Origin: Brevundimonas sp.
GTDB taxonomy: Bacteria; Pseudomonadota; Alphaproteobacteria; Caulobacterales; Caulobacteraceae
DNA: 40,000 nucleotides
Reading direction: 5' to 3'
NCBI RefSeq assembly: GCF_041919755.1
Contig: NZ_JAYRTD010000004.1
Span: forward strand, 185,916-225,915
Position numbers and translations under genes: made by a program. Positions within the stretch are counted from its first letter, which is position 1. Each line of letters opens with the position of its first letter. Below the pieces are notes generated by a model. It worked only from the letters and a program-made list of their open reading frames with translations, did not search any database and was not told where the DNA came from. This document shows, one piece after another, positions 20,084-38,371 of the stretch.

Positions 20084-20116
20084 GGCCCAAGCGCACTAGA
20101 AAGCTCATATCGAACC

Positions 20117-20279: not shown

Positions 20280-20489
20280 TCAGGGTTTCTGCAGGAGATC
20301 CAGCGGGTCCACCCGCAGGGCGCTCGCTATGCGCTCAACAACCGCAAGCGTCGGGTTTCGCCGTCCGCGCTCGATCTCACCAACATAGCTGTACGACAGG
20401 CCCACATCATGGGCGAGCGCCTCAAGCGTCACGTCCTGCTCAGCCCGAACGCGCCGAACATTCTTGCCGAAGACTTGAGCCAAACCCAT
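20280..20489 (-). CDS. XRE-family HTH regulator, 69 aa (copy 2, 100% identical to copy 1)
   Basis: Nucleotide-identical to 19874-20083 at offset 406. Confidence 0.85.
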   Translation of the reverse strand: MGLAQVFGKNVRRVRAEQDVTLEALAHDVGLSYSYVGEIERGRRNPTLAVVERIASALRVDPLDLLQKP

Positions 20490-20522
20490 GGCCCAAGCGC
20501 ACTAGAAAGCTCATATCGAACC

Positions 20523-21105: not shown

Positions 21106-21107
21106 CT

Positions 21108-22094: not shown

Positions 22095-22176
22095 ATCAGT
22101 CGGGCTCCGGGGTTCGGGCGCCTGCCGCCCGTCTCTCCCACGTCGCCAGATGGCGTCGAGGGGAGGAGACAATATC

Positions 22177-25119
22177 ATGAACCGATTGAACCTGCTGACC
22201 GGAAGCGCCCTGGTCGCCTGCGTTCTGGCCGCCGGGCCCGTCAGCGCCCAGGAGGCTCGAGACTTCAACATCGCGGCGGGCTCGCTACGGGACGCCCTGA
22301 ACGCGTTCGCCGCCCAGTCCGATCAACAGATCTTCGTGCCGGGGGACCTGGTCGCGGGCCTTCGGTCCGAGGGGCTCCGCGGACGACACGCGCCGGCGGC
22401 CGCTCTCGATCTGCTGCTGCGGGGGTCCGGCCTGACCTGGAGCCAGAGCCGGCCGGGAGTTTTCGTTGTGCGTCGTTCGGGAGCGCAGGCCGCGCTGGAA
22501 GCGCCGACGACCGAACTCGGCGATGTGGTGGTTACTGGCACTCTGCTCCGATCGTCCGGAGAACTGGCGTCGCCGGTCGTCGCCTTGAGCCGGGATGAAC
22601 TCGACAGGCGCGGATTTGCGACGGTCGCCGAGGCGCTCACGGATCTGCCCCAGAACTACTCCGGATCGGGAACGCCGGCGGCGTTGCTGTCGCGTGCGGA
22701 CCCTGCCGGTTCCAACAGCGTGGCGGCGACCGGAATCAATCTGCGGGGGCTCGGGGCGGATGCGACCCTGGTCCTCATCAACGGCCGACGGATGGCGGGC
22801 ACCGGTTCGCGCGGGGAGTTCGCCGATGTGTCGGCGTTGCCATCCGCCGCGGTGGAGCGGGTCGATGTGCTGCTCGATGGCGCCTCGGCCCTATACGGCT
22901 CGGACGCCGTCGCGGGCGTCGTCAACGTCATCATGCGCCGATCGCTCGACGGCCAGGAGAGCCGAGTGCGCGTGGGCGCCGCGCGAGGCGGCGCCGAGGA
23001 TGTGACGGTGTCCCATATCGCCGGGACCACCTGGTCGGGCGGGAGCGGGTATCTGTCGTGGGAGTATCAGGACGCCAATCCGCTGGGCGCGGGGGATCGA
23101 GCATTCACACGCGATGGCGATCTGCGTCCGTTCGGAGGCTCGGACCGGCGTATGCTCTACAGCGTGCCGGGCAATATCGTCGCCGTCGATCCCGGCACTG
23201 GCGGATATGTCTCGGCCTGGGCCATTCGGCCAAACAGTTCGGGGACGGCGCAGAGCCCGTCGGACTTCGTCGCCGGCGCCACCAATCTCAGTGGCCAGAT
23301 CGCGGGGGTGGACCTTCTGCCCGAAGTGAACCGACACAGCGTCTACGGTCGCGTCCGCCAATCAATCGGCGACCGGCTCGACCTGTCAGCGGATCTGCGC
23401 TTCAGCCAGCGGGACTACGGCTTCGCCAATACGGGGTCTGTGACGATCTTTCAGGTCACCTCGGCCAACCCCCATTTCGTATCGCCCAATGGATCGACGC
23501 GGCATTTGATCGGCTACTCCTTCCTGGAGGATCTGGGAAACAGTCGGCAGGAAGGCGAGTCCCGGAGCCTCGGCTTCACAGCCGGCGCTGACTACGATCT
23601 CGGGAACGGCTGGACGTTGGACGGTTATCTCGCCTGGGCCGAGGAGCGGGGCGAAAAGCGAACGTTCGGCATCGTGAACTCGGCCTTCCTCAATGAGGCT
23701 CTCGGCAATACGCTGGAAAATCCCGCCACCGCCTATTCCGCGTCTCGTGACGGCTTCTTCAACCCGTTCGGCGCGGGCGACGCCAATGGCGCCGCGGTGC
23801 TCGACTTCATCAGTTCGGGCTACTCGGCCTCACTGGATCGCAGTCGGTCCCAGTCCGCCAACCTCCTGCTTCAGGGATCAGCCCTGTCTTTGCCCGGCGG
23901 CGATGTCGATGTGGCGGTCGGCCTGCAGATGCGTCGCGAGACGTTCGACACCCGACTGTCGACGCTGACCGGTTCGGTCGCGCCCTTGGACATCGTGTCC
24001 CCTTCGAGTGACCGGACGATTTCAGCGCTCTTCGCGGAAGTGCGCGTGCCACTGGTGGGAGAAGCCAACGCCCGTCCGGGGATCGAACGGCTCGAACTGT
24101 CGCTGGCGGGGCGCGTCGAGGACTACGAGGACTTCGGCAGAACCTCCAACCCGAAGGTGGGCGTGGTCTGGTCGCCTGTGTCGGGTCTTAACCTGCGGGC
24201 CTCGTGGGGCACGTCTTTCCGGGCGCCCTCCTTGCCGCAGCTGAACGATGCGGATCAGTCCGCGCCGACTTTCGTGACGCGAGGTGACGGCGCCTCGATC
24301 CTGTCGCTGTACCGCTACGGCGGCAATGCGGGGCTCCAGCCGGAAACGGCGGAAACCTGGACGCTCGGAGGCGACTACGAGGGAGGCGGCGGTCTTCGCC
24401 TGAGCGTCAACCTGTTCGACACGCGGTTCGACAACCGCATCTCCCAACCCGTCAACGAGCACCTCGACGCCGCTCTGACAGATCCGGCCCTGGCCCCGTT
24501 CGTCCGCATCATCGATCCGGCGAACAGCGCGGCGGACCTGGCGCTGATCCGCTCGTTCACCGACGATCCCGCCTACGCCTACGGATCGTTGTTCCCGCCA
24601 GTATCCTATGGCGCGATCCTGGATGCACGCTGGGTCAATGCGGCGGCGGTTCGCGTCCGGGGCCTCGACTTTCAGGCCTCGCGACCCTTCGCGTTCGGGG
24701 ATCACAGGGTCACGATCGAGTCCGGGGCGTCCTGGCTGCTCGACTACGAGACACGGCTGACACCCACGGCGGAGGGCCAGTCCGTCCTTGGCCGGATCGG
24801 TTACCCGGTCCGACTGCGGGCGCGAACGGGCGCGGTCTGGACGTGGGCTGATTTCAGCGCCGGGCTTCACTGGAGCCATGTGTCGGCCTACCGGGATGAC
24901 GCCGACCGCCGGATCGAGGCATGGAACACCGCCGACCTGCAGGTCGGATGGTCTCCGGCGTCTGGCGTTCTCGCGGGCTGGCGGATTCTCGGAACCGTCC
25001 AGAACCTCTTCGACCAGGACCCGCCTTTCTACGATTCCCCGACGGGCTTCGGCTACGATCCGGGCCAGGCGGACCTTCTGGGCCGTGTCGTGAGCCTGCA
25101 ACTGATCCGTCGCTGGTGA
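22177..25119 (+). CDS. TonB-dependent transducer (FecA-like receptor with N-terminal STN signalling domain)
   Basis: Signal peptide MNRLNLLTGSALVACVLAAGPVSAQE. STN-like FNIAAGSLRDALNAFAAQSDQQIFV. Plug INLRGLG...LVLINGRR. C-terminal aromatic residue (...LIRRW). GGAGGAG Shine-Dalgarno 7 nt before ATG 22177. Confidence 0.9.
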   Translation: MNRLNLLTGSALVACVLAAGPVSAQEARDFNIAAGSLRDALNAFAAQSDQQIFVPGDLVAGLRSEGLRGRHAPAAALDLLLRGSGLTWSQSRPGVFVVRRSGAQAALEAPTTELGDVVVTGTLLRSSGELASPVVALSRDELDRRGFATVAEALTDLPQNYSGSGTPAALLSRADPAGSNSVAATGINLRGLGADATLVLINGRRMAGTGSRGEFADVSALPSAAVERVDVLLDGASALYGSDAVAGVVNVIMRRSLDGQESRVRVGAARGGAEDVTVSHIAGTTWSGGSGYLSWEYQDANPLGAGDRAFTRDGDLRPFGGSDRRMLYSVPGNIVAVDPGTGGYVSAWAIRPNSSGTAQSPSDFVAGATNLSGQIAGVDLLPEVNRHSVYGRVRQSIGDRLDLSADLRFSQRDYGFANTGSVTIFQVTSANPHFVSPNGSTRHLIGYSFLEDLGNSRQEGESRSLGFTAGADYDLGNGWTLDGYLAWAEERGEKRTFGIVNSAFLNEALGNTLENPATAYSASRDGFFNPFGAGDANGAAVLDFISSGYSASLDRSRSQSANLLLQGSALSLPGGDVDVAVGLQMRRETFDTRLSTLTGSVAPLDIVSPSSDRTISALFAEVRVPLVGEANARPGIERLELSLAGRVEDYEDFGRTSNPKVGVVWSPVSGLNLRASWGTSFRAPSLPQLNDADQSAPTFVTRGDGASILSLYRYGGNAGLQPETAETWTLGGDYEGGGGLRLSVNLFDTRFDNRISQPVNEHLDAALTDPALAPFVRIIDPANSAADLALIRSFTDDPAYAYGSLFPPVSYGAILDARWVNAAAVRVRGLDFQASRPFAFGDHRVTIESGASWLLDYETRLTPTAEGQSVLGRIGYPVRLRARTGAVWTWADFSAGLHWSHVSAYRDDADRRIEAWNTADLQVGWSPASGVLAGWRILGTVQNLFDQDPPFYDSPTGFGYDPGQADLLGRVVSLQLIRRW

Positions 25120-25129
25120 GAGGCGGATC

Positions 25130-27658
25130 ATGTTTGCTCACAACCGCCTCGCGGCGGCGCTGGCGCTCGCCTGCCTGACGTCCGCTGGCCCGGTCCTCGC
25201 CTTGCAGGACGGCCCGCCCGTCGCCGCACCGGGCCGAACCCTGTCCCTGGACGATGTCCTCTCGATGGAGACCTTCGGTACGGCTTCGCTCTCTCCGGAT
25301 GGACAATGGGTCGTCTATGAACGGCGGCGTCCCTACGATACCGCGCCCCGGTTCGATCGGTCCCACCGGTCGGGTTGGGCCGTCAGCGACCTGAAGATCG
25401 CCCGAACCGACGGTGGGGCGCCGGAAGACCTCCTGCCCTCGGAGCCAGGCGTTGGCCTCTTGCTGGGGTCATGGTCGCCGGACGGTCGTCGTCTTCTGGT
25501 CCACCGGTTGAGCGGGGATCGGCTTGAGATCGGCGTCGTGACTCTGGCGGATCGATCGGTGAGGTGGACCGGTCTCACGCCGGACCTAGTCAACGGGGTG
25601 ACGAGTGCATGGCTGGACGCGGACCGGCTGGCCCTCACCATTCGGCCGGGCGGGGATCTGCCCTGGCTTCTGCGTTTCGATGGCACGGGCCAGTCGGAGA
25701 TGGACCAACGGTGGACGCGGACGGCCGAGGGGCGCGAGCCGTCCCGGACCCGGGTCGAGACGCGCGCCGGCCAGGTGACGACGGACGCCGCGGCGCCGCC
25801 GGTCCGTCTGATCGTGCTCGATGTGCGGACGGGGCTGCAACAGGTCCTCGCCGAGGGAGCGATACGGGACTTCGCACCGTCCCCCGCCGGAGACCGGATC
25901 GCGGTCCTGACATCCGGGGCGCCGGTGGCGAGGGTCCCACTGAGCTCGATCGCCCAGAGCGCGGTCCAGACCCGTAGCCGGTTGACCCTGGTAGCGGTTG
26001 GGACGGGAGAGGCGGTTCGTCCGGGCGATGACCTCGACGTGGCTCCGCATCTCCTGCGCTGGTCTCCCGCCGGTGACGCCGTGCTGATTTGGGCGCGTCG
26101 GGACGGGGAGGGATGGGGCGCCGCCACGTTGCTCGCGGCCGGCATCGACGGCGATCTGAAGCGGTTCGAGACGGCTGGGCTGCGCCCCTTCGAAGAGGGG
26201 CGGGACGTGGATGAAGTCCGGGTCGTTCAGGCCGACTGGCTCGGGCGGGACGCCATCCTGCGGGCCCGACGACCCGGGTCCGACCGGTTCGACTGGTGGA
26301 CGCTCGGCGCGGGCGCGCCGCTCAATCTGACGGAGGGGATGGCGTCATCTCCGTCGCGGCTGTCCGCCGTGCTCGATGACGAGGCGTTGGCGTTCGCCGG
26401 AGGACGACTGTGGTCTCTGGGGCGCGGCGGCGAAACAAGGCCGCTGTCCGCCGAAGGCGATACCCTGAGCGATGGCCGCACCTTCACGCTCATGACCCCG
26501 TTCCGGATCCAGGCGAACGAGCCCCCGAGGCAGTCCTGGATCGCGGCGCGATCGCCCTCCGGGACGCGCATTCTGGATCGAGGCGGAGCCACAGGGATAA
26601 CCTCGACGCAGACCTGCGACGGCACCCTGATCGGGCGGTCTGTTGTGCGGACGGGAATCCTGACGGCATGTCTGGATCAGGGTGTGGAGACCCTCGCCCT
26701 GGCCACGCCGGGGGTGGATCGGGTGCTGGATCGCGTGAATGCTGACCTGGCCGAGGTCGCCATCCCTCAGGCGAAACCGATCCATCATCGCGATCCGTTC
26801 GGACAGGCCGTGACCAGCTATCTGTTCCTGCCGCCTGGTCGGACGGCGACCGAGGTCAGGGGGCTTATCGTCATGGTCTACCCCGGGGTCGTGGAGGATG
26901 GCCGCTATGTGGAGGCGACAGGCCTCCAGTCTCTGGGGCCGCGCGCGCAAATCCTCGCCACCGAAGGCTACGCGGTCCTGTCCGCGGCCCTGCCCGACGA
27001 AAGTCAGACGACACGGCCGACGATGTTTGACGACTTTACCCGTGCGACGGACGCGGCGGTCGACGCCGCGCTCGCCGAAGAACCCGGCTTGCCGTCGAAC
27101 CGGCTGGCCCTGCTGGGCCACAGTTTCGGGGGATACACCGCCCTGGCGATCGCGACACGGTCGCCGCGATATCGAAGTGTGGTCGCCTGGGCCGCGCCGA
27201 CGGATCCGGCGGCCAAATGGGGCGAACTGCGACCCCATGCCTGGCTTTGGCCGGAGTATGCGATGTCGCTCGATACTGCACCGGGCGCCGTCGAGAACGG
27301 GCAGGCCAGACTGGGCGGTCCGCCCTGGTCCGAGGCCGATCAGTATGCAGGCGCCAGCCCTTACATGCAGGCGGACCGGATCGTCGCGCCGCTTTTGCTG
27401 ATCACCGCCGATCGAGACTATGTGCCCATGGCAAACGCCCAGCGCATGCTGTCCGCGATGCACCGGCAGGGCAAATGGGCGCGACTGGCGACCTATTGGG
27501 GCGAGAGTCACTCCAACGCCAGTCCGGCCAATGTGCGCGATGTTTATCGGGAGATCTTCGACTGGCTCGACCGCACGCTCGGCGATGAGGCGCTCAACCT
27601 CCCGGTAGGCGCCGCTCCCATGCCCGGACCCAACTCTCGATCGCAGCCGTCGTCATGA
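25130..27658 (+). CDS. S9 prolyl-oligopeptidase-family serine hydrolase; lasso-peptide isopeptidase candidate (AtxE2-like)
   Basis: 842 aa. Sec-type signal peptide, N-terminal propeller-like region, and C-terminal alpha/beta hydrolase with LLGHSFGGYTA (GxSxG), ITADRDYV (Asp) and WGESHSN (His). Starts 10 nt after the receptor gene and converges on the lasso A-B-C genes. Confidence 0.8.
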   Translation: MFAHNRLAAALALACLTSAGPVLALQDGPPVAAPGRTLSLDDVLSMETFGTASLSPDGQWVVYERRRPYDTAPRFDRSHRSGWAVSDLKIARTDGGAPEDLLPSEPGVGLLLGSWSPDGRRLLVHRLSGDRLEIGVVTLADRSVRWTGLTPDLVNGVTSAWLDADRLALTIRPGGDLPWLLRFDGTGQSEMDQRWTRTAEGREPSRTRVETRAGQVTTDAAAPPVRLIVLDVRTGLQQVLAEGAIRDFAPSPAGDRIAVLTSGAPVARVPLSSIAQSAVQTRSRLTLVAVGTGEAVRPGDDLDVAPHLLRWSPAGDAVLIWARRDGEGWGAATLLAAGIDGDLKRFETAGLRPFEEGRDVDEVRVVQADWLGRDAILRARRPGSDRFDWWTLGAGAPLNLTEGMASSPSRLSAVLDDEALAFAGGRLWSLGRGGETRPLSAEGDTLSDGRTFTLMTPFRIQANEPPRQSWIAARSPSGTRILDRGGATGITSTQTCDGTLIGRSVVRTGILTACLDQGVETLALATPGVDRVLDRVNADLAEVAIPQAKPIHHRDPFGQAVTSYLFLPPGRTATEVRGLIVMVYPGVVEDGRYVEATGLQSLGPRAQILATEGYAVLSAALPDESQTTRPTMFDDFTRATDAAVDAALAEEPGLPSNRLALLGHSFGGYTALAIATRSPRYRSVVAWAAPTDPAAKWGELRPHAWLWPEYAMSLDTAPGAVENGQARLGGPPWSEADQYAGASPYMQADRIVAPLLLITADRDYVPMANAQRMLSAMHRQGKWARLATYWGESHSNASPANVRDVYREIFDWLDRTLGDEALNLPVGAAPMPGPNSRSQPSS

Positions 27659-29339
27659 TGTCGACGTAGCCGCCACGCCAGGCGAGGGACTCCCGGGTCA
27701 GGGCGACATCGCCCCTGTCGCGATCGATCAGCCCCATGGCCGCCAGGCGCCCGTCGAGCAACCAGGGCCGAAGGACGTCCAGCCCGTCGGCGATCAGGTG
27801 ACCATAGAAGGCGGTCATCTCACCCTTGGACCTTCGGGTGGTGATCGCGTCTGGCAGGCGATCGGAGAAGGCCCGGCGGGCGAGCGCGCGATCTCGCCGT
27901 CCGAGGGTCAACTGGGGGGTTGGCAGGGCGAGGCAGACTTCGGTCACCGGTTGGGCGAGAAGGGGATGGAACACGGTCGCCACTTCGGTCTGGAACGACG
28001 CCCCGTGAAGGCCGCATCCCTGGACCAGACCCAGGATCTGGCGTCGCTTGGCCGGTCCGAGATCGTCGATGCCCTGAAGCCAGGGATGGCGCGCGATCTC
28101 CGGGTGGATGCGGGGACGCAGCAACGGATTGGGATCATCGATCGCCGCCGGCGTATACCTGGGCCGACGGGCGGCCCCGATCAGCGTCCAGACCGATCGC
28201 TCGTTCCAGCGTGCGAGGTCGATGTTGGCTCTGGAGAGGAACGCGCGCCATCCCCGTTGACGATGGAAATCGACAAAGACGCCGGCGTCCGCTGGCTGGA
28301 TGAACATCGAGTCCCCGCCCTTGCCTGTGATGACCGTGTCTATGCCGGCGGCCACGAACCGCCGCGCCCAGTCGGCGTCATGAAGGGCATCCATGGCGGC
28401 CAGTCCGGGCCGGATGCCCAGCGTGAGATGGGTCAGCATCTCCAGGGTCAGCCGGCCGGTCGCACGGGGTTGGCACGTCGCGGTGATCCCGATGTGTGCC
28501 GCCAGAAGATCGACCCAGGGCCGTTCGTCGGCAGTGGCGTCGGGTCCCCAGGCGTTCAGCCAGAGCCGCACCCGGTCGGGCTCGGTCCGCGCCAGTGTCG
28601 CCGCCACGATGCTGGAATCGAGACCGCCCGACACCTCGGCCGCCAGGACGCCGCCAGACTTCAGAACGCCTGCGACGACCTGGTCGAGAGCGTCTCGCAG
28701 TCGCTCTGCGGCCTCGTCGTCAGAAAGGGCGGGCGCTGACCGGGCCAGCCAGTCAGGCCGCCAGAGCTCGCTCACAATCCCGTCGTTCAGGGTCACCATG
28801 GCGCCGGGCAGGACAGCAGCGGGGCCGTCGATAAGGAGATCGCCCGAGGTCGAATATGGATCATGAAGCGCCGCCTCGACGCGGGCGGGATTGATCCGCC
28901 AGCCGGCGCCAGCGCTCCGCGCGAGCCACTCTGGAACCTGGGAGGCGACGAGGGTGACCGGACCCTGCGCCCACCAGAGGCAATCCAGGGCGCCGGACGG
29001 ATCACGCAGGAGCGCGGCCAGTCGTCCCTTGCCGTCCAGACGCACGCCGATGAAGCGCCCCCAAAAGCGGGCGAGCATCTTCTTCTCGTAGGAGGCCGGA
29101 TCATCGTCGGGGATCTGGCGGACGGCGGGATCGTGACGATTGAAGACCTCGCCGACGAGGGTCCAGCCGCCGATCGTTGTGGAGGCGGGGCGGCCGGGGC
29201 CGGCGACAGCCAGCCAGGTTGCGTCGGACAGGGGGGTGATGGTCATGCCCGCGGCGCGCGCCTGCTCCTGAAGCCTAGGTGACAGGGGATGTTCGACCCC
29301 GCAGTCGGCGGACTGGCTGCAAAGCAGATAGGCGCCCAT
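27594..29339 (-). CDS. Asparagine-synthetase-like lasso peptide cyclase (C protein)
   Basis: 581 aa. PP-loop AAEVSGGLDSSIVAA typical of AsnB/McjC-type enzymes. TGATG junction with the B gene. Confidence 0.85.
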   Translation of the reverse strand: MGAYLLCSQSADCGVEHPLSPRLQEQARAAGMTITPLSDATWLAVAGPGRPASTTIGGWTLVGEVFNRHDPAVRQIPDDDPASYEKKMLARFWGRFIGVRLDGKGRLAALLRDPSGALDCLWWAQGPVTLVASQVPEWLARSAGAGWRINPARVEAALHDPYSTSGDLLIDGPAAVLPGAMVTLNDGIVSELWRPDWLARSAPALSDDEAAERLRDALDQVVAGVLKSGGVLAAEVSGGLDSSIVAATLARTEPDRVRLWLNAWGPDATADERPWVDLLAAHIGITATCQPRATGRLTLEMLTHLTLGIRPGLAAMDALHDADWARRFVAAGIDTVITGKGGDSMFIQPADAGVFVDFHRQRGWRAFLSRANIDLARWNERSVWTLIGAARRPRYTPAAIDDPNPLLRPRIHPEIARHPWLQGIDDLGPAKRRQILGLVQGCGLHGASFQTEVATVFHPLLAQPVTEVCLALPTPQLTLGRRDRALARRAFSDRLPDAITTRRSKGEMTAFYGHLIADGLDVLRPWLLDGRLAAMGLIDRDRGDVALTRESLAWRGGYVDIMTTAAIESWVRAWERRLPGG

Positions 29340-29989
29340 CAGACGGCCAGGATCGGGCTGAAGGTGCGGACCCGTTCCGCCGTATCGCCGGCGACGCGGT
29401 CACCGACCTGGACCCAGCAGTGAGCGAGGAACGGCCAGGTGCGCACGCCGAACACCCATCGGGCCGGGATGCCTGATCGATGCAGATGATGATGCAGACG
29501 ATAGCCGCGTTGCAGGCAGTCGCCCTCGAAGGGAATCCAGGGGTGGATGGCCAGGAAGGCGCCGATCGCCCGCGATGCCTCATCGTCGCTGACGTCCCGA
29601 TCCGGAGTGGAGCGGCGCGCGGCCGTGGCGACCAGATGGTCGAACGGGGCGCGGGCGAAGCTGACGCTCGCCGCCAGGCTGTTGACCGCCGCGCCGATCA
29701 GCAGTCGCCGGGGCAGGGCGTCTGTCCACGCCGGGACGTCTCCCACCGGTTCTGGCGGCGCGAAGCGAGCCGGTGAGGGGTGAGCGGCAAGGAGGCCGGC
29801 CGCCAGCAGATCATCGTGCACGTCGCGGGGTACCGTGATCCGCCCCGGATCGGGTTCGAACCGGATCATCGCCGCCGCGTCGGTAAGGAGGGCATAGTCG
29901 TCGCCCAGGATGTCGAGGACCACGATGTCATCGTGGCATCGCGCCAGATGGATGTGGGGCGCTAGGAAAACGGTGTGGTCTTCAGGCAT
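29339..29989 (-). CDS. Lasso peptide leader peptidase, fused B1 (PqqD-like RRE) and B2 (transglutaminase-like Cys protease)
   Basis: N-terminus IHLARCHDDIVVLDILGDDYALLTDAAAMI (PqqD-like). C-terminus FEGDCLQRGYRLHHHL...WVFGVRTWPFLAHCWVQVGDRVAGD (Cys/His/Asp pattern of McjB-type B2). Confidence 0.85.
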   Translation of the reverse strand: MPEDHTVFLAPHIHLARCHDDIVVLDILGDDYALLTDAAAMIRFEPDPGRITVPRDVHDDLLAAGLLAAHPSPARFAPPEPVGDVPAWTDALPRRLLIGAAVNSLAASVSFARAPFDHLVATAARRSTPDRDVSDDEASRAIGAFLAIHPWIPFEGDCLQRGYRLHHHLHRSGIPARWVFGVRTWPFLAHCWVQVGDRVAGDTAERVRTFSPILAV

Positions 29990-30046: not shown

Positions 30047-30163
30047 TCAGACGGGCGTCCGGCTGCGCATGACGCCGATCTCGGCCCAGTTGCCTTCGAC
30101 TTCGTGCCGGGTCAGGTCCCGGGCGCGGCCGAGGCGGATGAGTGTCAGTCGGGTCGTTTTCAT
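30047..30163 (-). CDS. Lasso peptide precursor 2 (38 aa)
   Basis: Hand-translated as MKTTRLTLIRLGRARDLTRHEVEGNWAEIGVMRSRTPV. GGAGAG Shine-Dalgarno 6 nt upstream. Leader fits L-x3-G-x5-T-x. Lies immediately upstream of B and C. Confidence 0.8.
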   Translation of the reverse strand: MKTTRLTLIRLGRARDLTRHEVEGNWAEIGVMRSRTPV

Positions 30164-30213
30164 CAGGGTCTCTCCGGTGGTGCGGGAGACGATGAAAGGG
30201 CCCGGATCGCAAA

Positions 30214-30244
30214 GGGCGGTCGCCCCATGGAGAGGCGACCGCCC
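30214..30244 (-). terminator. Hairpin between precursor 1 and precursor 2
   Basis: Perfect 11-bp stem GGGCGGTCGCC / GGCGACCGCCC (30214-30224 and 30234-30244) with a 9-nt loop, followed on the minus strand by TTTG only (weak U-tract). Confidence 0.45.
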
Positions 30245-30252
30245 CTTCCGCG

Positions 30253-30369
30253 TCAGACCGGGGTCTTGCTGCGGTCGAGGCCGATCTCGGCGAACCGACC
30301 CTCGGGCTCGAGTTGGGTCAGGGCCCGGGCGCTGCCGAGACGGACGAGCGCGATCCTGGTGGTCTTCAT
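30253..30369 (-). CDS. Lasso peptide precursor 1 (38 aa)
   Basis: Hand-translated as MKTTRIALVRLGSARALTQLEPEGRFAEIGLDRSKTPV. AGGGAG Shine-Dalgarno upstream. Same leader motif and same length as precursor 2. Confidence 0.8.
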   Translation of the reverse strand: MKTTRIALVRLGSARALTQLEPEGRFAEIGLDRSKTPV

Positions 30370-30461: not shown

Positions 30462-30950
30462 TCAGCGTCCCGGCTTGGGCCGGCGCGAGTTCAGGTCCGT
30501 CCGGCCTTCCTCGAGGAAGGTCTCCGCCTCCTCTGCCCGTCGGCCGCCAACCTCTGCGAGCGCGTCGAACATCTCTCCGAACGCGGCGATCAGCGAGCGG
30601 GCGTCGAGGTCTCGGATGCGGTCTCCCATCTGCCGGTCATAGGCCTGGAGCAGGATGGTGAAGGTGGTCATGAACTTGTTGTCGGCCGTCCGCACGGCGA
30701 ACTCGGGCGATCCGATCGCGATGGCGTGCATGAGGCCGTAGAAGTCGGAGCCTGTGGCGACGCTGAAGCGGTGCAGGTAGTCGAGGTTGAGCCGCCCATG
30801 GCCGGCCTCGAAATGCTCGTAGGTTCGCAGCGGCATGTTGAGCGCGGTCGCCGTTTCTTGCGTGGACAGACCCCGCAGTCTCCGCACGCCCTTCAACACC
30901 GCCGATCGAAGACTCCCGTCGTCCCGAGACTCCAACGAGGTCTCGTCCAT
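30462..30950 (-). CDS. XRE-family HTH transcriptional regulator (162 aa) with an uncharacterised C-terminal domain
   Basis: LKGVRRLRGLSTQETATALNMPLRTYEHFEAGHGRLNLDYLHRF is a Cro/C1-type HTH. Same strand as, and directly upstream of, the precursor genes. Confidence 0.75.
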   Translation of the reverse strand: MDETSLESRDDGSLRSAVLKGVRRLRGLSTQETATALNMPLRTYEHFEAGHGRLNLDYLHRFSVATGSDFYGLMHAIAIGSPEFAVRTADNKFMTTFTILLQAYDRQMGDRIRDLDARSLIAAFGEMFDALAEVGGRRAEEAETFLEEGRTDLNSRRPKPGR

Positions 30951-31191
30951 GATTGCTCCCGGTATGTGATCGACGGTGAGTCATCGTGCGACGGGATCGC
31001 CTTGCGATCAACGCTCGCGTGTATCTGTCCCTAGCTGATTTGTCGCATCCGCAAGAAAGTTGCGGTCCGACCGCCGGTTTATTGCGGGCTTGCCGACGAT
31101 TTCTTGCGGATCGGCCAACCGGGAGATGCAATCCATTGGCGAAGGCCGACGGGCTGACGATAACGCGGAGTCTATCTGTACGGAGTTGGCT

Positions 31192-31815
31192 GTGCCGAGA
31201 GCCCGCGATCCCTTCAGCCTGGCGCTCGAGAACATTCGCGATCGAGCCCTGCGGGGTGTCTACAGCCCGGGCGGGTCCATCGTGATCATCGAGGAGGCGC
31301 GTCGCCTCAATTTGTCGACCACACCGGTTCGCGAAGCGCTCGCCTGGCTCTGTGGCGAAGGCCTCCTGGAGCGCGCGCCGCGTGCGGGCTACCTCGCCCC
31401 GCGGCTCGATGCCGCGATGTTGCGGGATCGGTTCTGGCTCCGCCTGCGGGCGCTGACGACGAGCCTGGAACTGACCATCGATCTGGCCGCCCAGGCGTCG
31501 CCGGCACCGGACCTGTCCGCCGAGGATGCGGTGCGCGAACTCTTCGACCGTCTGGTTCGCGCCACGGGAAATCGGTCACTGGTCGATGCCTTCCGACGGG
31601 TCGACGCCCAGTTGCGCATGCTGGGCGACGCGGAGTTCCGCCTGTTCCCGGATGCCGACGCCGAGGCGGCCCATTTGGCCCATCTCGGCCGCGAGGGCGC
31701 CCGGCAGGATCTGACCGAAGCGGTCACCCGCTATCACCGTCGACGCATGGACGCCTCCGCCCTTCTGGTGCTGGAGGTTGAGCGCCGCGGTCCGCGGTCG
31801 GCGGACGGCGACTGA
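31192..31815 (+). CDS. GntR-family transcriptional regulator
   Basis: Winged HTH LSTTPVREALAWLCGEGLLERAPRAGY. Start placed at GTG 31192, preceded by GGAG 6 nt upstream. The track ATG 31060 adds an implausible N-terminus. Confidence 0.75.
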   Translation: MPRARDPFSLALENIRDRALRGVYSPGGSIVIIEEARRLNLSTTPVREALAWLCGEGLLERAPRAGYLAPRLDAAMLRDRFWLRLRALTTSLELTIDLAAQASPAPDLSAEDAVRELFDRLVRATGNRSLVDAFRRVDAQLRMLGDAEFRLFPDADAEAAHLAHLGREGARQDLTEAVTRYHRRRMDASALLVLEVERRGPRSADGD

Positions 31816-33691
31816 GGTGAGGATCCGGCTGATCCTGCTGGCCCTGGGCTTGCTGCTCGGTTCACAGTCCGCCGGACAGGCCTTTGCCTGGCTTTACGGG
31901 GCCGACCCCGTTCTGGGCCCTGCCTGGCGTCCCGCGCCGGACATCGCCCTTTACCCGCCGTGGTCGATTTATGTCTGGCGCCTTCGGTTTGGTGAGGAGG
32001 CGGCCCGCGCGGTCGGGTCCTGCGCCCCACTCATCCTCCTGGGGGGAATGGGCGGCCTGGGCCTCGGCGTTCTGGTCGACGGCGCCGGCCGGATAAGGCG
32101 GGTCCGGGGCTGGGGCGGAGCGGCCGAGGCCCGCGCCGCCGGTCTGACGGCCCCGGGCGGCTGCATCCTTGGCCTGCTTGGCCGGCAGCTGTTGGCGACG
32201 ACCGATCTGCGCCCGAGTCTCGTGACGGGCGGAACCCGGTCCGGCAAAGGGCGCGGCCATGTCATGCCGACTCTCCTGTCCTGGAACGCCAGTGTTCTGG
32301 TGCATGACCCGAAGGGCGAGCTCTGGAGACTGAGCGCCGGATGGCGGTCCCGCTTCAGCCACGCGCTCTACTTCGATCCCCGCGATCCGGCGTCCGCCTG
32401 CTGGAACCCGCTGGCGGAGATCCTTCCTGGCCCGGGGGAACTCGCTCATGTCCAGCGCCTGGTCGCGATCCTGTCGGACCCCGGGGGAGCGCGGGACGAC
32501 GAGGCGATCTGGGACCGGGCGGCTTCGGAGATCCTCGAGGCGGTGATCCTTCACGTGCTCTACACCGCCGAGGACGGCGACAAGACGCTGCTGACGGTTC
32601 GGGGGCTCCTGGCGGATCTGGACGATGCCGCCGAGGTCATGGGGCGGACGCTGCACCGGATTGGAATATCCGGTTCGCCCGAGGTGCATCCCTTCATCGC
32701 CACGGCCGTGAAAGGCTATGCGGCCATGCACGACCGTTTCCGGACGTCGGTCCAGGGCACGGCTCGGTCCTATCTGAAGTGGTTGGCGGGCGAGGATGTC
32801 GAACGGGCCCTGTCGCGTTCGGACTTCTCGATGGCGGACCTGATGTGCGCCGAGGTGCCTGTGTCCCTCTATGTGCAGGTGGCGCCCGCCGACGCGGCGG
32901 CGCTTCGGCCGCTGGTGCGTCTGTTCTTCTACGCCGCCGCCCAGGCGCTCACGGTGAAGGAGGGGGAGGCGGCGGACGGCCGGCCGAAACAGCATCGGCT
33001 CCTCATGCTCATGGATGAGTTTCCGCTTTTGGGTCGGGTGAGCTTCTTCGAGAAGTCGCTGCGATTGCTGAGCGGCTACGGGGTGAAGGTGATGTTCGTG
33101 GCCCAGTCGCTCAACGACATCGTCGAAACCTACGGGGCCAACAACACCATCCTCGACAACTGCGCCGTCTACACCGCCTTCTCGGCGCTCGATCCGCTGA
33201 CCCAGGACAAGGTCTCCAAGCTCACGGGGACGGTCCTGGAGACCCGGTCGAGCCGGAGCGCGCCGGCGGGTCTCGGGGCCGGGCGGAGTTCGGTGTCGCG
33301 ATCGGAAATCGAGCGACCGCTGGTCGAGCCCGGCGAGATCCGCTCACTGCCGGACGATGTCCAGTTGGTGTTCGCCGCCGGCGTCCGACCGCTTCGGACG
33401 CGCAAGCTCCACTATGACAAGCGTGAGCCGTTTCGCACCCGGGCGCACGATGTGGCGCCGGATCAGTCCATTGGGCTGGATGGCCCGCCTGTCGCGCCCC
33501 ATCCCTGGGCGGGGCGCCGCAGCCGTGGCGAAGACCCGCAAGCCTCCCTGCCGCTGTTCAAGGAGGTCGCGGCGGCGATGGACGAGCGGAAGGTCGCCGC
33601 CCGGGTGGCCGACATCTACGGGCGGGTGGCGCAGGAGATGGCTGCGCAGGACGCGGCTCTGGATCACTTGAGAGGACTGGGTGATGGCTAG
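31778..33691 (+). CDS. traG: Type IV secretion coupling protein TraG/VirD4
   Basis: N-terminal TM segments. Walker A GGTRSGKGRGHVMPTLL; Walker B LLMLMDEFPLLG. A start at GTG 31817 (2 nt after the GntR stop) is as likely as ATG 31778. Confidence 0.88.
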   Translation: MSAAVRGRRTATEVRIRLILLALGLLLGSQSAGQAFAWLYGADPVLGPAWRPAPDIALYPPWSIYVWRLRFGEEAARAVGSCAPLILLGGMGGLGLGVLVDGAGRIRRVRGWGGAAEARAAGLTAPGGCILGLLGRQLLATTDLRPSLVTGGTRSGKGRGHVMPTLLSWNASVLVHDPKGELWRLSAGWRSRFSHALYFDPRDPASACWNPLAEILPGPGELAHVQRLVAILSDPGGARDDEAIWDRAASEILEAVILHVLYTAEDGDKTLLTVRGLLADLDDAAEVMGRTLHRIGISGSPEVHPFIATAVKGYAAMHDRFRTSVQGTARSYLKWLAGEDVERALSRSDFSMADLMCAEVPVSLYVQVAPADAAALRPLVRLFFYAAAQALTVKEGEAADGRPKQHRLLMLMDEFPLLGRVSFFEKSLRLLSGYGVKVMFVAQSLNDIVETYGANNTILDNCAVYTAFSALDPLTQDKVSKLTGTVLETRSSRSAPAGLGAGRSSVSRSEIERPLVEPGEIRSLPDDVQLVFAAGVRPLRTRKLHYDKREPFRTRAHDVAPDQSIGLDGPPVAPHPWAGRRSRGEDPQASLPLFKEVAAAMDERKVAARVADIYGRVAQEMAAQDAALDHLRGLGDG

Positions 33692-34124
33692 GAAGGATGC
33701 CGGCGCCTGCCGCGTGCAGGTCTATCTGACGGATCAGAAGGTGGTCGCGGCCCTGAACCGGGAAGCGCGGGTGGGCAAGGTTCCGCTCAGCCAGGCGGCG
33801 GGACGGGTGATTGCCCGGGGACTCCAGAAGAGTCCGCACGCCGATCCGGATGATCGTCTCCTGCACCTGGACCGCAGTCTTCGCGACCATATGCGCTCGA
33901 CCGCCCGGGACATGCAGATCGTCCAGGAGCTTCTGATCGAGGTCGCCCGGGCCTTCTTCCTGCGCCTGCCCGACGCGGTTGTGGACCAGGACCCGACCGT
34001 TCAGGCGGCCGTCGACCGCCGGATCGAGCGCCTGCTGGACGCGACAGCCGCCAGGATCGTCGCCGGGCGGGCGACGTCGGAGGGCGGCGTGCCTGCAGAG
34101 GAACGATCGTTCGGGCCGAACTGA
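33684..34124 (+). CDS. Ribbon-helix-helix (CopG-like) protein between traG and trbB
   Basis: N-terminus CRVQVYLTDQKVVAALNREAR fits an RHH beta-strand and helix. GAGGA lies 8 nt before ATG 33684. TGATG junction with trbB. Confidence 0.6.
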   Translation: MARKDAGACRVQVYLTDQKVVAALNREARVGKVPLSQAAGRVIARGLQKSPHADPDDRLLHLDRSLRDHMRSTARDMQIVQELLIEVARAFFLRLPDAVVDQDPTVQAAVDRRIERLLDATAARIVAGRATSEGGVPAEERSFGPN

Positions 34125-35080
34125 TGAGCGAAAATCCGCTTATCGCCAATCGAAAGCTGGAGGCGCTCCGTCACGCGCTCGGCGAAACCGTTCTGGAGGC
34201 CCTCGTCGAACCCGCTGTGGTCGAGATCATGGCCAATCCCGATGGGCGTCTCGTCCTGGACAGAAGCGGGGAGGGGCGACGCGACACCGGAGAGAGCCTG
34301 ACCGCCGAGGCGCGTGAACGGGTGGTCCGGTTGATCGCGGACTATGTTGGCGAGACGGTCACGCGCGATGATCCGCGCGTGTCGGGCGTCTTGCCCGGCA
34401 CAGGCGAGCGGTTCCAGGGGCTGCTGACACCCGTGGCGCCGGGCCCGACCTTTTCCATCCGCAAGCGTCCGGCCGTAATCTGGACGCTGGACGACTATGT
34501 GCGCGATGGTGTGATGACCGCTGGTCAGGCCGACGCACTTCGAGCCGCGGCAGCCGGCCGGATGAACATCCTGATTTCGGGCGGGACAGGGTCGGGCAAG
34601 ACCACTCTCGCCAATGCGGTGCTCGCGGAGCCGGCCTTTGCCGGAGATCGGGTGTTCCTGGTCGAGGATACGCCGGAACTGCAGTGCTCGGCCTGGGACG
34701 TTGTCTCGGTGCTCACTCGGCGGCAGCCGATCGTCATCGGCGTGGTGGACCTGGTGAGGGACGCCCTTCGCATGCGGCCTGACCGGATTGTGGTTGGCGA
34801 AATGCGGGACGGCGCCGCCGCACTGGAGACGTTGAAGAGCTGGAACACGGGACACCCCGGCGGTCTGTCGACCCTCCATGCCAACTCGGCCGACGATGTA
34901 CTACGCCGCGTCGAGGACCTCATCGCGGAGGTTTCGGCCCGCACGCCCCGTCGAGCGATCGCTCAGGCGGTCGACCGGATCGTCCATATCCGGCGGACCG
35001 AGACCGGCCGGACAGTCGAAGCCGTGCTCGGGGTCGAGCCGTCGGACGACGGCGGCTACGCGATCACCCGCCTGGCTTGA
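34124..35080 (+). CDS. trbB: P-type conjugative transfer ATPase TrbB (VirB11 family)
   Basis: Walker A ISGGTGSGKTTLANAVL. RIVVGEMRDGAA and WNTGHPG (His box) typical of VirB11/TrbB. Confidence 0.9.
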   Translation: MSENPLIANRKLEALRHALGETVLEALVEPAVVEIMANPDGRLVLDRSGEGRRDTGESLTAEARERVVRLIADYVGETVTRDDPRVSGVLPGTGERFQGLLTPVAPGPTFSIRKRPAVIWTLDDYVRDGVMTAGQADALRAAAAGRMNILISGGTGSGKTTLANAVLAEPAFAGDRVFLVEDTPELQCSAWDVVSVLTRRQPIVIGVVDLVRDALRMRPDRIVVGEMRDGAAALETLKSWNTGHPGGLSTLHANSADDVLRRVEDLIAEVSARTPRRAIAQAVDRIVHIRRTETGRTVEAVLGVEPSDDGGYAITRLA

Positions 35081-35137
35081 GCACCGGAGAATGTGGCTGC
35101 GCACGGCAGGAACGCAGCCGTGGCGGGCTCCAAGCCC

Positions 35138-35248
35138 AAGTCATCGCGAGTTGATGCTGAGTTCTCCCCAAGTCGTTGGACGCAAGTCTCTACAAGTCTT
35201 ATCCTAAGTTGAGACGAGTCGAGCTAAAGTCTTCGAAAAGTCGAGAAG
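35138..35248. repeat. Array of about 8 short (A)AGTC repeats in the AT-rich trbB-trbC spacer
   Basis: AAGTC-type motifs start at 35138, 35170, 35184, 35194, 35206 (AAGTT), 35216 (GAGTC), 35227 and 35238. The last six are spaced 10-12 bp apart. Sub-repeats AAGTCT (x3) and AGTCGAG (x2). Confidence 0.5.
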
Positions 35249-35341
35249 AATATTCACTGCGACCTGTTGACAACCTGTGGGTATATTTGCTTGCAATGTG
35301 TTGCGGCGCGTTGAGATGCGCTGAAACAAAGGAAGTCTGAC

Positions 35342-35662
35342 ATGCGACGGATACTGGGGCGCCGGCTCTTCGGCGCGACGATGACGTGCGGCCTGATGGT
35401 GGCCGGGCCGGTTCTCGCCGGAGGATCGGGAATGCCGTGGGAGGGACCGCTGCAGCAGGTGGTCCAGTCGATCACGGGACCGGTGGTCCAGGCGGCCGCC
35501 GTGGTGGCCGTGGTGATCTTCGGGGCGGGCATCGCCATGAGCGAGAACGGCTCCTCGATGCGCCGAGGGCTGGGCATCATGTTCGGTCTGTCGATCGCTT
35601 TCGCCGCCTCGACCTTCTTCCTCGACTTCTTCGGCTTCGCCGGAGGGGCGGAGATCGGCTGA
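35342..35662 (+). CDS. trbC: TrbC/VirB2-family pilin
   Basis: 106 aa. Signal-like N-terminus plus two hydrophobic helices (VVQAAAVVAVVIFGAGIAM, GIMFGLSIAFAASTFF). AAGGAAG Shine-Dalgarno. Confidence 0.85.
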   Translation: MRRILGRRLFGATMTCGLMVAGPVLAGGSGMPWEGPLQQVVQSITGPVVQAAAVVAVVIFGAGIAMSENGSSMRRGLGIMFGLSIAFAASTFFLDFFGFAGGAEIG

Positions 35663-35940
35663 TGACCGGCTCCGCTCCAGACGGTCGTCCGAACGGTTGG
35701 GATCTGCCGGTCGCGCAGGCTCTGGCCGAGCCCGTCCTGATGGCCGGCATGCCGAGGGACTACGCGATCGCGATGGGCACCATCGCCATGGTGCTGGGTC
35801 TGGCCCTGCGGATCTGGTGGCTGGGCCTGCTGTGGTGGGCCGCCGCCCATGCGATCGGCCTGTGGGCTGCGCGCGCCGACCGGCGCTTCTTCGACGTCCT
35901 GAAGCGGCATCTCGCCCTGCCCGGCCATCTGGACGCGTGA
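35662..35940 (+). CDS. trbD: TrbD (VirB3-like) conjugal transfer protein
   Basis: 92 aa beginning MTGSAPDG... LAEPVLMAGMPRDYAI then a hydrophobic hairpin. TGATG junction with trbC. The track reports it only as the tail of a longer spurious ORF (35386-35940). Confidence 0.8.
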   Translation: MTGSAPDGRPNGWDLPVAQALAEPVLMAGMPRDYAIAMGTIAMVLGLALRIWWLGLLWWAAAHAIGLWAARADRRFFDVLKRHLALPGHLDA

Positions 35941-35947
35941 GGGTCGG

Positions 35948-38371
35948 ATGCGTTTCCTCGACGAACACCGCCGCCGTCCCGCCGCCCTGGCGGATCACCT
36001 GCCCTGGGCCGCCCTCGTCGCGCCCGGCGTCGTGCTCAACAAGGACGGCTCCTTCACCACGGCTTTCCGGTTCAGGGGACCGGATCTGGATTCATCGACC
36101 GAGGACGAGCTCATGGCGGTGCGGGCGCGCCTCAACAACGCCCTGCGACGCCTGGGGACCGGCTGGTGTCTGCACATGGAAGCGCGTCGGCGCGAGGCCA
36201 CGCCCTATCCCGAAAGCCGGTTCGACACCGACATCGCCTGGCTGCTGGACGAGGAGCGTCGCCAACGGTTCGAGGCGGGCGAGCCGGCCTTCGAAAGCGA
36301 CTTCCGACTGGCCCTCACCTGGCTGCCGCCGGCTGACGAAACCCGTCGGATCGAGCGCTGGCTGTTCGACGGCCTGTCCAGGGCGGACGCGGATTGGCGT
36401 CAGGCGCTCGCCGCCTTCGTACGGGAAGCCGCGACCACCCTCGACCTCCTGCGCGACGGCCTGCCCGAGGTGGCGCCGCTCGACGACGCCGATCTTCTGA
36501 CCTGGCTCCATGAGTGCGTGTCGCCGCGCGGCCACCGGGTGGAGCCGCCGGACGAGCCGATGTTCCTCGACGCCTGGCTCGCGGACGCGGACCTCTCGGG
36601 AGGCGTCGCGCCGCGACTGGGCGGGCGTTGGCTCAAGGTCATCTCGGTACGCGGTCTGCCCTCGGTGACCCGACCGGGATTGCTGGACGCCCTGGGCGCC
36701 CTGCCGTTTCCCTACCGCTGGACCGCGCGCTGGATCGGTCTGGACAAGCCGGAAGCGGAGCGGGAGATCGTTCGTCTGCGCAAGCGCTGGTTCGCCAAGC
36801 GAAAGGGCGTCGGCGTCTTGCTGCGCGAGGCCATCACCAAGGAGGAGGTGCCCCTCCTCGACACCGACGCCGCCTCCAAGACGGAAGAATGCGATGGGGC
36901 GCTGGCGGCCTTGGGGGCGGAGAGTTGCGCCTATGGCTATCTGACCCTCACGGTAACCGTGCTCGACGACGAGGAAGCCGGCGCCGCCGCCAAGGCGCGC
37001 GCGGTCGAAGCCGCCCTTAACGCCCAGGGTCTCGTCGCGCGCATCGAGGATCTGAACGCGGTGGAGGCCTGGCTGGGCTCTCTTCCGGGCGAGCCCTACG
37101 CGGACGTCCGGCGGCCGTTGGTGTCGACACTGAACCTGGCCGACCTGCTGCCCGTTTCGGCGGTCTGGGCCGGGCCGATGGGGGATCAGTGCCTTGGCGG
37201 CCCGCCGCTCGCGACCGCGCGGACCACGGGATCGACGCCCTTTAGGCTGGTGCTGCACGTCGGCGATGTCGGCCATGCCATGGTCATCGGACCGACGGGC
37301 TCGGGCAAGAGCGCGCTCCTGTCCTTCCTGGCGCTGCAGTGGTTCCGCTATCCGGACGCCCGGGTCGTGTTCTTCGACAAGGGACGATCCGCTCGCGCCG
37401 CGACTCTGGCGGCCGGGGGACGGTGGCGGGCGCTGGCGCCGGGCGCGGCCTTCTCGCTTCGGCCGTTGGCGGGCATCGATGAGGAGGGTGAGCGCGCCTG
37501 GGCCTCCGAATGGATCGCCGAGACCGTGCGGCTCGCCGGTCTGGAGCCCGTGCCCCGCGTCCGCGAGGAAATCTGGTCGGCCCTCGGCGCCCTGGCCGAG
37601 GCTCCGGTCGGTCAGCGCACCCTGACGGTCTTCTGCGCTCTGGTGCAGGACCGGGCCGTCGCGGCCGCCCTTGAGCCCCTGACGTTGAAGGGGCCGCATG
37701 GCGGCCTGCTCGACGGTGAGGGCGAGGCCCCGGTCCCGACCCGCTTCGACACCTTCGAACTCGAGAGCCTCATGGGCACGCCGTCCGCCGTGGCGCCGGT
37801 TTTGTCGGCCCTCTTCCATCATCTGGAGCGCGGCTTCGACGGACGGCCCACCCTGCTGGTGCTCGACGAGGCCTGGCTGTTCCTGGGCGAGACCGCCTTT
37901 GCGGCCAAGATCCGCGAGTGGTTGAAGACCCTGCGCAAGAAGCGTGTGGCCGTGATCTTCGCGACCCAGAGCTTGGATGATGTCGCCGCCTCGCCGATCG
38001 CCTCCAGCCTGATCGAGAGCTGCCCGACCCAGGTCTTCCTGCCCAATCCCCGGGCGCTCGAACCCGCCTCGGCCCGCCTCTACCAGGGCTTCGGACTCAA
38101 CCGGCGACAATTGGAGCTGATCGCCTTCGCGACGCCCAAGCGCGCCTACTACTGGCGCCAGCCCGCGGGCCGCCGGCTCTTCGACCTGCGTCTGACCGGC
38201 GTGGCCCTCGCCCTGTGCGGCGCCGGGTCGCCCGAAGATCAGACCCTCATCGACGACATCCTCGCACGCGCCGGCGAAGACCGGTTCGCGCGGGAATTCC
38301 TCACAGCCAAGGGAGTTTGCCATGTTGACGCTGTTCTCGACGCCTTCGCCCCGCCGCTCGCGGCGGAGTAA
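35948..38371 (+). CDS. trbE: TrbE (VirB4-family) conjugal transfer ATPase
   Basis: 807 aa. Walker A VIGPTGSGKSALLSFL; Walker B TLLVLDEAWLFL; ATQSLDD. Confidence 0.92.
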   Translation: MRFLDEHRRRPAALADHLPWAALVAPGVVLNKDGSFTTAFRFRGPDLDSSTEDELMAVRARLNNALRRLGTGWCLHMEARRREATPYPESRFDTDIAWLLDEERRQRFEAGEPAFESDFRLALTWLPPADETRRIERWLFDGLSRADADWRQALAAFVREAATTLDLLRDGLPEVAPLDDADLLTWLHECVSPRGHRVEPPDEPMFLDAWLADADLSGGVAPRLGGRWLKVISVRGLPSVTRPGLLDALGALPFPYRWTARWIGLDKPEAEREIVRLRKRWFAKRKGVGVLLREAITKEEVPLLDTDAASKTEECDGALAALGAESCAYGYLTLTVTVLDDEEAGAAAKARAVEAALNAQGLVARIEDLNAVEAWLGSLPGEPYADVRRPLVSTLNLADLLPVSAVWAGPMGDQCLGGPPLATARTTGSTPFRLVLHVGDVGHAMVIGPTGSGKSALLSFLALQWFRYPDARVVFFDKGRSARAATLAAGGRWRALAPGAAFSLRPLAGIDEEGERAWASEWIAETVRLAGLEPVPRVREEIWSALGALAEAPVGQRTLTVFCALVQDRAVAAALEPLTLKGPHGGLLDGEGEAPVPTRFDTFELESLMGTPSAVAPVLSALFHHLERGFDGRPTLLVLDEAWLFLGETAFAAKIREWLKTLRKKRVAVIFATQSLDDVAASPIASSLIESCPTQVFLPNPRALEPASARLYQGFGLNRRQLELIAFATPKRAYYWRQPAGRRLFDLRLTGVALALCGAGSPEDQTLIDDILARAGEDRFAREFLTAKGVCHVDAVLDAFAPPLAAE

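Follow-up and report, generated by a model that had tools for sequence, protein, structure and literature searches.

A predicted brevunsin-type lasso peptide cluster of a Brevundimonas-like alphaproteobacterium with leucine- and histidine-initial precursor cores

Lasso peptide clusters of the astexin type (Asticcacaulis excentricus) and those of the caulosegnins and caulonodins (Caulobacter) encode multiple precursors, a fused B protein and a cyclase C, and have no ABC exporter. They adjoin genes for an S9 peptidase, a TonB-dependent receptor and FecR/FecI. In lasso peptide diversification generally, position 1 is as a rule the site that tolerates the least change. Many cyclases are strict here, and some take nearly any residue; PalC accepts any residue except Pro, and a published large-scale survey reported all residues but Pro. 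Lasso peptides with Trp1, Tyr1, Phe1, Glu1 and Asp1 have been characterised, as have the Leu1 peptides citrulassin N and stlassin of Streptomyces, both closed between Leu1 and Asp8.

Brevunsin, which was reportedly described by Kodani et al. in 2018, provides an experimental anchor for the locus considered here. It is reported to have been produced heterologously, in the host Sphingomonas subterranea, and to be a typical, heat-stable lasso. Its locus in Brevundimonas diminuta ATCC 11568 (L017) encodes a precursor in which the leader MNTFKLRLVSFGSAKALTR is followed by the core DGMGEEFIEGLVRDSLYPPAG, and the sequence deposited as PDB 5ZCN (brevunsin) is exactly DGMGEEFIEGLVRDSLYPPAG (DGMGEEFIEG...). 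The mature N-terminus is the residue directly after 'LTR' of the B. diminuta precursor. This match means that, in a characterised member of the family, Thr-x is the last part of the leader to be cut away and the mature start is not Gly. An Asp1-Glu9 ring can be deduced, Glu9 being the only acidic residue at positions 7-9. The table of a review (PMC12427821) gives brevunsin as a Gly1 peptide (GDMGEEVIEGLVRDSLYPPAG, GDMGEEVIEG...). This version is contradicted by both 5ZCN and the B. diminuta genome, and we treat it as a misprint that wrongly suggests Gly1.

In the window, by which we mean the whole stretch of 40,000 nucleotides that was analysed, two small genes, A1 and A2, very probably encode two substrates of a brevunsin-type class II lasso cluster in a Brevundimonas-like alphaproteobacterium. 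An earlier note on this DNA had reported the two precursor reading frames, and both are present exactly so on the minus strand:

30253-30369, minus strand: precursor gene A1, 38 codons, encoding MKTTRIALVRLGSARALTQLEPEGRFAEIGLDRSKTPV
30313-30369, minus strand: A1 leader, 19 aa, with Thr18 at position -2
30256-30312, minus strand: A1 core, LEPEGRFAEIGLDRSKTPV; Leu1 is encoded by CTC (30310-30312), Glu9 by 30286-30288
30047-30163, minus strand: precursor gene A2, 38 codons, encoding MKTTRLTLIRLGRARDLTRHEVEGNWAEIGVMRSRTPV
30107-30163, minus strand: A2 leader
30050-30106, minus strand: A2 core, HEVEGNWAEIGVMRSRTPV; His1 is encoded by CAC (30104-30106), Glu9 by 30080-30082

The two genes are paralogues (66% identity), and a GGAG-type ribosome-binding site can be read 6 nt before the ATG of each. 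Both products consist of a short leader with a penultimate Thr (T18 in each case) followed by the core; within core positions 7-9, Glu9 is the sole acidic residue in A1 and in A2, and Cys is absent from both cores, as expected of class II. A 115-aa open reading frame that starts with GTG and contains A2 was set aside, since it arises simply by reading through the A1 region in a different frame. Over the whole gene, dN/dS comes to 0.69 in A1 and 0.38 in A2; both values are below 1, and purifying selection is the stronger on A2.

The genes that surround the precursors are the following:

29339-29989, minus strand: lasso B protein, 216 aa, in which a putative leader-binding region at the N-terminus precedes a fused B2 domain, a transglutaminase-like Cys protease
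27594-29339, minus strand: lasso cyclase C, 581 aa, Asn-synthetase-like, with the PP-loop SGGLDS at residues 237-242
25130-27658, plus strand: S9-family serine peptidase, a putative lasso isopeptidase, 842 aa (PF00326)
22150-25119, plus strand: TonB-dependent receptor with an STN signalling domain (PF07660, PF07715 and PF00593)
21054-22094, plus strand: FecR-type anti-sigma/sensor protein (PF04773 and PF16220)
20608-21105, plus strand: FecI-type ECF sigma factor
30462-30950, minus strand: conserved 162-aa open reading frame directly upstream of A1, perhaps coding for an XRE-like HTH regulator
31060-31815, plus strand: divergent GntR-family regulator (PF00392, 30 bits), syntenic in relatives

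The B protein is recognised by PF13471 (80.9 bits) and by NF033537, lasso_biosyn_B2 (79.9 bits, cutoff 33). Among 50 homologues its Cys158 and His190 are invariant and its Asp202 is at least 90% conserved, giving a Cys-His-Asp triad, and its AlphaFold model has a pLDDT of 94. No RRE/PqqD match was found by sequence in the N-terminal 95 residues; comparison of the fold of this N-terminal region gave a local match to the lasso RRE TbiB1, which is non-significant (E 0.88). The cyclase matches PF00733 with 87 bits (cutoff 21) and lies under the curated cutoffs of the lasso-specific NCBIfam models (82 bits versus 300, and 46 versus 525). Sequence searches of the PDB with B and with C matched nothing.

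The S9 peptidase begins with what resembles a signal peptide and contains GHSFGG as its nucleophile motif; its gene converges with that of the cyclase and overlaps the 3' end of the latter. Its best NCBIfam match is the AtxE2 lasso peptidase model NF033523, at 56 bits versus a cutoff of 400 and aligned over the C-terminal catalytic domain only. A PDB sequence search with the peptidase retrieved 8wt1 and other S9 or alpha/beta hydrolases, and not AtxE2. Neither the NF033523 cutoff nor homology to AtxE2 places the protein in the AtxE2 family, and what makes it a putative isopeptidase, by analogy, is conserved synteny. The peptidase is 842 aa long in the window and 742 aa in the brevunsin locus, while the AtxE2 model covers 638 positions. 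Judging from these sequences, the lasso-linked peptidases of Brevundimonas may form a distinct subfamily.

In one of the related loci (L003) the TonB-dependent receptor occupies the same position as in the window. The sigma factor scores 57.7 bits on TIGR02937, above the cutoff, and its best matches are FecI models. The 162-aa open reading frame upstream of A1 is syntenic in all loci of the clade, where its orthologues carry weak HTH_3/HTH_31 marks; the window copy has no Pfam match. No ABC exporter or tailoring enzyme was found near the lasso cluster. A1 and A2 are thus followed on the same strand by B and C, with the module of S9 peptidase, TonB receptor, FecR and FecI converging on them, which is the exporter-less, peptidase-associated lasso architecture known from Caulobacteraceae. 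Profile searches confirmed this domain content, and the cluster resembles those of the astexins, caulosegnins and caulonodins in architecture. It differs from them in its cores, which begin with Leu and His, whereas the peptides of those clusters start with Gly, Ser or Ala (sequence table of PMC12427821), and in its peptidase, since astexin clusters carry AtxE2 and the window protein reaches only the low score on the AtxE2 model given above.

The likeness to brevunsin extends further. The two loci share the order TraG/VirD4, GntR-like regulator, HTH open reading frame, A, B, C and convergent S9 peptidase, and over the full length the C protein and the S9 peptidase of the window are 45% (E 5e-164) and 41% identical to those of L017; for B the identity is about 39%. 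The precursors have in common the leader motif, Thr(-2), a start other than Gly, Glu9 and Pro18, and Asp1 of brevunsin falls in the alignment column of Leu1 and His1. In its orthologous B, C and S9 peptidase, its synteny, its Glu9 and its non-Gly position 1, the window cluster is therefore of the brevunsin type. The differences are that brevunsin has Asp1, 21 aa and a tail ending ...DSLYPPAG, whereas the window cores have Leu1 or His1, 19 aa and the ending RS[KR]TPV; and that the window cluster, unlike the brevunsin locus, encodes a pair of precursors, with an S9 peptidase that exceeds its counterpart by about 100 aa.

To place these features, a census anchored on B was made of 80 loci from species-representative genomes, 80 metagenomic loci and the close relatives of the window cluster described further below, for a total of 169 loci with precursors and 159 unique cores. 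Thr is present at leader position -2 in all 169. Nineteen loci had appeared to be exceptions, and inspection showed that they all carry Thr(-2). The 159 cores were selected for an Asp or Glu at positions 7-9; among the 136 unique cores of a first-pass census, this acceptor was mostly Glu9 or Glu8. An alignment of 23 family precursors, brevunsin included, is free of gaps from leader G12 to core P18. Its invariant positions are G12, A14, L17 and T18 of the leader and Glu9 and Pro18 of the core; core Gly5 is at least 90% conserved, and E2, E4, A8, I10, R14, S15 and T17 vary. The motif S-[KR]-x-P at positions 15-18 is kept in most of the 19-aa Brevundimonas cores.

These data bear on most of what the earlier note had proposed for the precursors. 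It placed cleavage after residue 19, leaving 19-aa cores, and allowed that homologous precursors might break the T-x rule; the rule holds at every locus of the census, and the N-terminus of brevunsin agrees with the cleavage site. The 9-membered Leu1-Glu9 or His1-Glu9 ring that it predicted gains support from the invariance of Glu9 in the family alignment. The leader motif L8/G12/T18 stands as regards G12 and T18, and is looser than supposed at L8, a position occupied by L, P, F or I in the family. Likewise, the scaffold xExEGxxAEIGxxRSxTPV is indeed shared by A1 and A2, but it is less rigid than its formula implies, since seven of its positions are among those that vary in the family. One Brevundimonas cluster (L035, at 3626 and 3820) encodes DGFDGPFLELG... 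(Asp1, Glu9) alongside GIDGPFLELG... (Gly1, Glu8). These cores are near-identical and one N-terminal residue apart, which implies that one cyclase makes 9- and 8-membered rings.

Position 1 is occupied by nine different residues among the 159 unique cores (D 61, G 37, A 20, L 17, H 8, Q 7, S 5, T 3, M 1), so that the homologue search which the earlier note had recommended did find this position variable. The same note had taken Gly, and rarely Ala, Ser or Cys, as the proteobacterial norm. This picture is incomplete: brevunsin has Asp1, and Gly1 makes up 23% of the family cores as against 77% for other residues. As judged from these predicted cores, a non-Gly start is the norm in the Brevundimonas family, and the novelty claimed earlier was overstated. 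First residues are mixed in 16 of 49 distinct multi-precursor clusters (His with Leu in 7), which makes tolerance at position 1 a trait of the family. Clusters with Gly1 and clusters without it fall into different genera, so that phylogeny would confound any correlation between columns of the cyclase alignment and the first residue.

The note's statement that Leu1 is known from actinobacteria was correct, the examples being citrulassin N and stlassin. Leu1 forms the macrolactam in these peptides, as it is predicted to do in A1, but they differ from the window system in their actinobacterial origin, split B1 and B2 genes, 8-membered Leu1-Asp8 rings and unrelated cores. The statement that His1 lasso peptides are unknown also stood, in that no characterised one was found in the literature searched, whose coverage mostly stops short of subscription papers. 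No paper printing the exact A1 or A2 core strings was found, and the strings are absent from the genome-mining supplements examined. The novelty is thus modest and confined to His1, a clade-specific and apparently uncharacterised first residue.

The Leu1 and His1 cores occur as a pair in close relatives. B has 113 relatives in the database, mostly labelled Brevundimonas. A search with a concatenated A1 and A2 query returned three A2-like proteins, all of the form ...LTR followed by HEV(E/D)G..AEIG.MRSRTP., and the contigs that encode them have the same synteny plus an A1-like gene with a Leu-initial core. On a 722-kb chromosomal contig of the MAG GCA_002403865.1 a 99%-identical copy of B is accompanied by identical precursors; a blastn search of plasmids with the lasso cluster matched nothing. 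Relatives were then sampled at 50-73% identity of B. Wherever B is at least 59% identical (59-73%), every sampled cluster has a Leu1 precursor followed by a His1 precursor, which amounts to 7 distinct metagenomic or MAG clusters and 8 unique His1 cores. His1 is encoded by CAC in four of these clusters and by CAT in three, Leu1 by CTC, CTG or CTT, and Glu9 by GAG or GAA. In the next clade A1 still has Leu1, and position 1 of the A2 paralogue is Ala, Gln or Ser.

The conservation of the pair upstream of B in at least 7 clusters, the dN/dS values below 1 and the synonymous codon changes together indicate that A1 and A2 are real genes and not chance open reading frames. The codon changes and dN/dS further argue that both are functional and constrained, and that His1 is maintained by selection in its clade. 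In two of the related loci (L003 at 2574-2705 and L004 at 277-408) the A2 leader contains a tandem triplication of TPTRL (MTPTRLTPTRLTPTRLG...), which lengthens the leader at its N-terminus and leaves the G-x5-T-x motif untouched. The public NCBI annotation of the MAG GCA_030656335.1 (L095, 1127-1444) calls neither precursor gene; Leu1/His1 precursors are therefore easily missed by annotation-based mining.

For the formation of the A1 and A2 products we infer both the chemical steps and a threaded topology. The N-terminal part of B would bind the leader through its motif (a hydrophobic residue, then G12-x-A14-x2-L17-T18-x), and the B2 protease, with Cys158, His190 and Asp202, would cleave after residue 19. 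A single cyclase C would then adenylate the side chain of Glu9 and join it to the alpha-amine of Leu1 in A1 or of His1 in A2, so that the products would be 19-residue lassos with a 9-membered ring and a 10-residue tail. Since one B/C pair is to serve both precursors, it must accept first residues of two kinds, aliphatic and imidazole. The candidate plugs, R14 and K/R16, are compatible with the conservation of R14 in the clade and with the S-[KR]-x-P motif.

The cleavage site could be placed differently. The earlier note had itself named a core starting at Gly5 as a finding that would overturn its prediction; LEPE and HEVE would then form the end of the leader, and Asp would be the ring acceptor (GRFAEIGLD in A1). 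The strong conservation of Gly5 is in keeping with such a start, as is the Asp that A1 of the window then has at position 9, and a sub-threshold match of the NCBIfam model lasso_leader_L3 to the precursors (14.7 versus a cutoff of 19, spanning residues 7-25/26) runs past the proposed cleavage site, to residue 25/26. That span, however, probably reflects a model trained on Gly1 precursors. Moreover, A2 (GNWAEIGVM) would be left without Asp or Glu at positions 7-9, and so would most A1 orthologues, which have Gly (L001, L089, L093 and L097), Asn (L003 and L091) or Ala (L096) in place of that Asp. The solved sequence of brevunsin begins right after T-x and not at an internal Gly, and the invariant spacing of Thr(-2) would have to be abandoned. 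We consider a Gly5 start almost certainly wrong. A core beginning at residue 19 (Gln19 or Arg19) was also rejected: it would need a 10-membered ring, and the N-terminus of brevunsin disagrees with it.

Cleavage after residue 19 being retained, the fate of the two peptides could still differ. Only one precursor, for instance that with Leu1, might become a lasso, the His1 paralogue being cleaved but left uncyclised, or acting as a decoy or regulator. The strictness of many cyclases at position 1 and the lack of a characterised His1 lasso peptide in the literature searched lend this some weight, as does the lability of position 1 in the A2 paralogue, which is H, A, Q or S across sister clades. 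Yet A2 is the more strongly constrained of the two genes, its leader, Gly5, Glu9 and tail are all intact, and the retention of His1 through both CAC and CAT in 7 clusters, with B down to 59% identity, would be hard to explain for a peptide that is not a substrate. This alternative is in our judgment unlikely. Even less probable is that both precursors are processed as predicted and give unthreaded, branched-cyclic or heat-labile products for want of adequate steric plugs. The 10-residue tail is short and has no aromatic residue, and the only candidate plugs are Arg14, Lys/Arg16 and, in A2, Met13. Against this, plugs formed by Arg and Lys are known from other lasso peptides, the S-[KR]-x-P motif is conserved across most 19-aa Brevundimonas cores, and brevunsin is reported to be a typical heat-stable lasso. 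The reading in which A1 and A2 both yield threaded, 19-residue lassos is thus preferred.

A secreted S9 peptidase next to a TonB receptor and FecR/FecI suggests that the peptides are taken up, sensed and linearised. A bolder scheme would make the Leu1/His1 pair a functional two-peptide system, in which the imidazole of His1, adjacent to the isopeptide bond, forms a metal site with the ring carboxylates of Glu2 and Glu4. The His1 lasso would then be a ribosomally made, metallophore-like ligand that the STN-domain TonB receptor recognises, with FecR/FecI sensing it and the S9 peptidase recycling it. We regard it as quite improbable; if true, it would give a physiological role to the long-unexplained isopeptidase-type lasso clusters, together with a first natural His1 lasso.

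The cluster may be silent; if expressed, A2 would be the first characterised natural His1 lasso peptide and A1 the first proteobacterial one with Leu1. More useful, perhaps, is that the natural service of Leu1 and His1 by a single B/C pair would point to a cyclase tolerant at position 1. The palassoptide cyclase PalC handles Phe1 and Glu1 from two precursors of one cluster, and the fusilassin cyclase FusC handles Trp1 and engineered variants. For these enzymes the tolerance is experimental, whereas for the window it would follow from the natural Leu1/His1 pair; PalC and FusC are also actinobacterial, with no detectable close sequence relationship to the window proteins. With at least nine first residues in the family, mixed in a third of the multi-precursor clusters, the cyclases appear to be attractive and compact (fused-B) scaffolds for engineering at position 1. 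The understanding of lasso biosynthesis is otherwise unchanged, the Thr(-2) rule, ring size and architecture being conventional.

Precursor mRNA is commonly favoured over enzyme mRNA by the arrangement of RiPP operons, and two hairpins in the A1-A2-B transcript region would fit such an arrangement:

30211-30247, minus strand: GC-rich 16-bp hairpin directly 3' of the A1 stop codon
30004-30040, minus strand: hairpin with UUUUU on its 3' side, located after the stop of A2 and before the start of B

The RNA between A1 and A2 has a folding energy of -58.2 kcal/mol (z = -5.4). The stem of the hairpin after A1 is kept in 8 loci, where 3 of its pairs show compensatory changes, and is probably an mRNA-stabilising or attenuating stem-loop. 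The hairpin after A2 is weak (z = -2.1) and was not detected by a simple terminator scan; it resembles an attenuator or a partial terminator. A scan for sigma-70 promoters detected none. At 30164-30200 on the minus strand (columns 68-83 of alignment A3), a short conserved helix pairs CUCC with the GGAG ribosome-binding site of A2, which suggests translational control of the second precursor.

The remainder of the window holds further features of note. A Dpd-like 7-deazaguanine DNA-modification/defence island extends over 4212-19841 on the minus strand and includes, besides a large AAA protein:

14178-14879, minus strand: QueC
16373-17659, minus strand: TGT-like DpdA
15288-16376 and 17656-18825, minus strand: two DndB-like proteins
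8215-14081, minus strand: DEAD and SNF2 helicases

A 300-nt direct repeat (19806-20105 and 20212-20511, 98% identical, spacing 406 nt) closely precedes the ECF sigma gene, where the window has its one low-GC stretch (0.567). The repeat has no tRNA or Rfam match, and weakly (70%) matches a Shinella plasmid in a gene for an HTH regulator. On the other side, at 31778-38371, conjugative T4SS genes (VirD4/TraG, VirB11 and VirB4) flank the lasso cluster, and the brevunsin locus has the same TraG and GntR-like flank (L017, 388-2271). Across the genus, the lasso cluster seems to travel with, or to sit beside, an integrative conjugative element.
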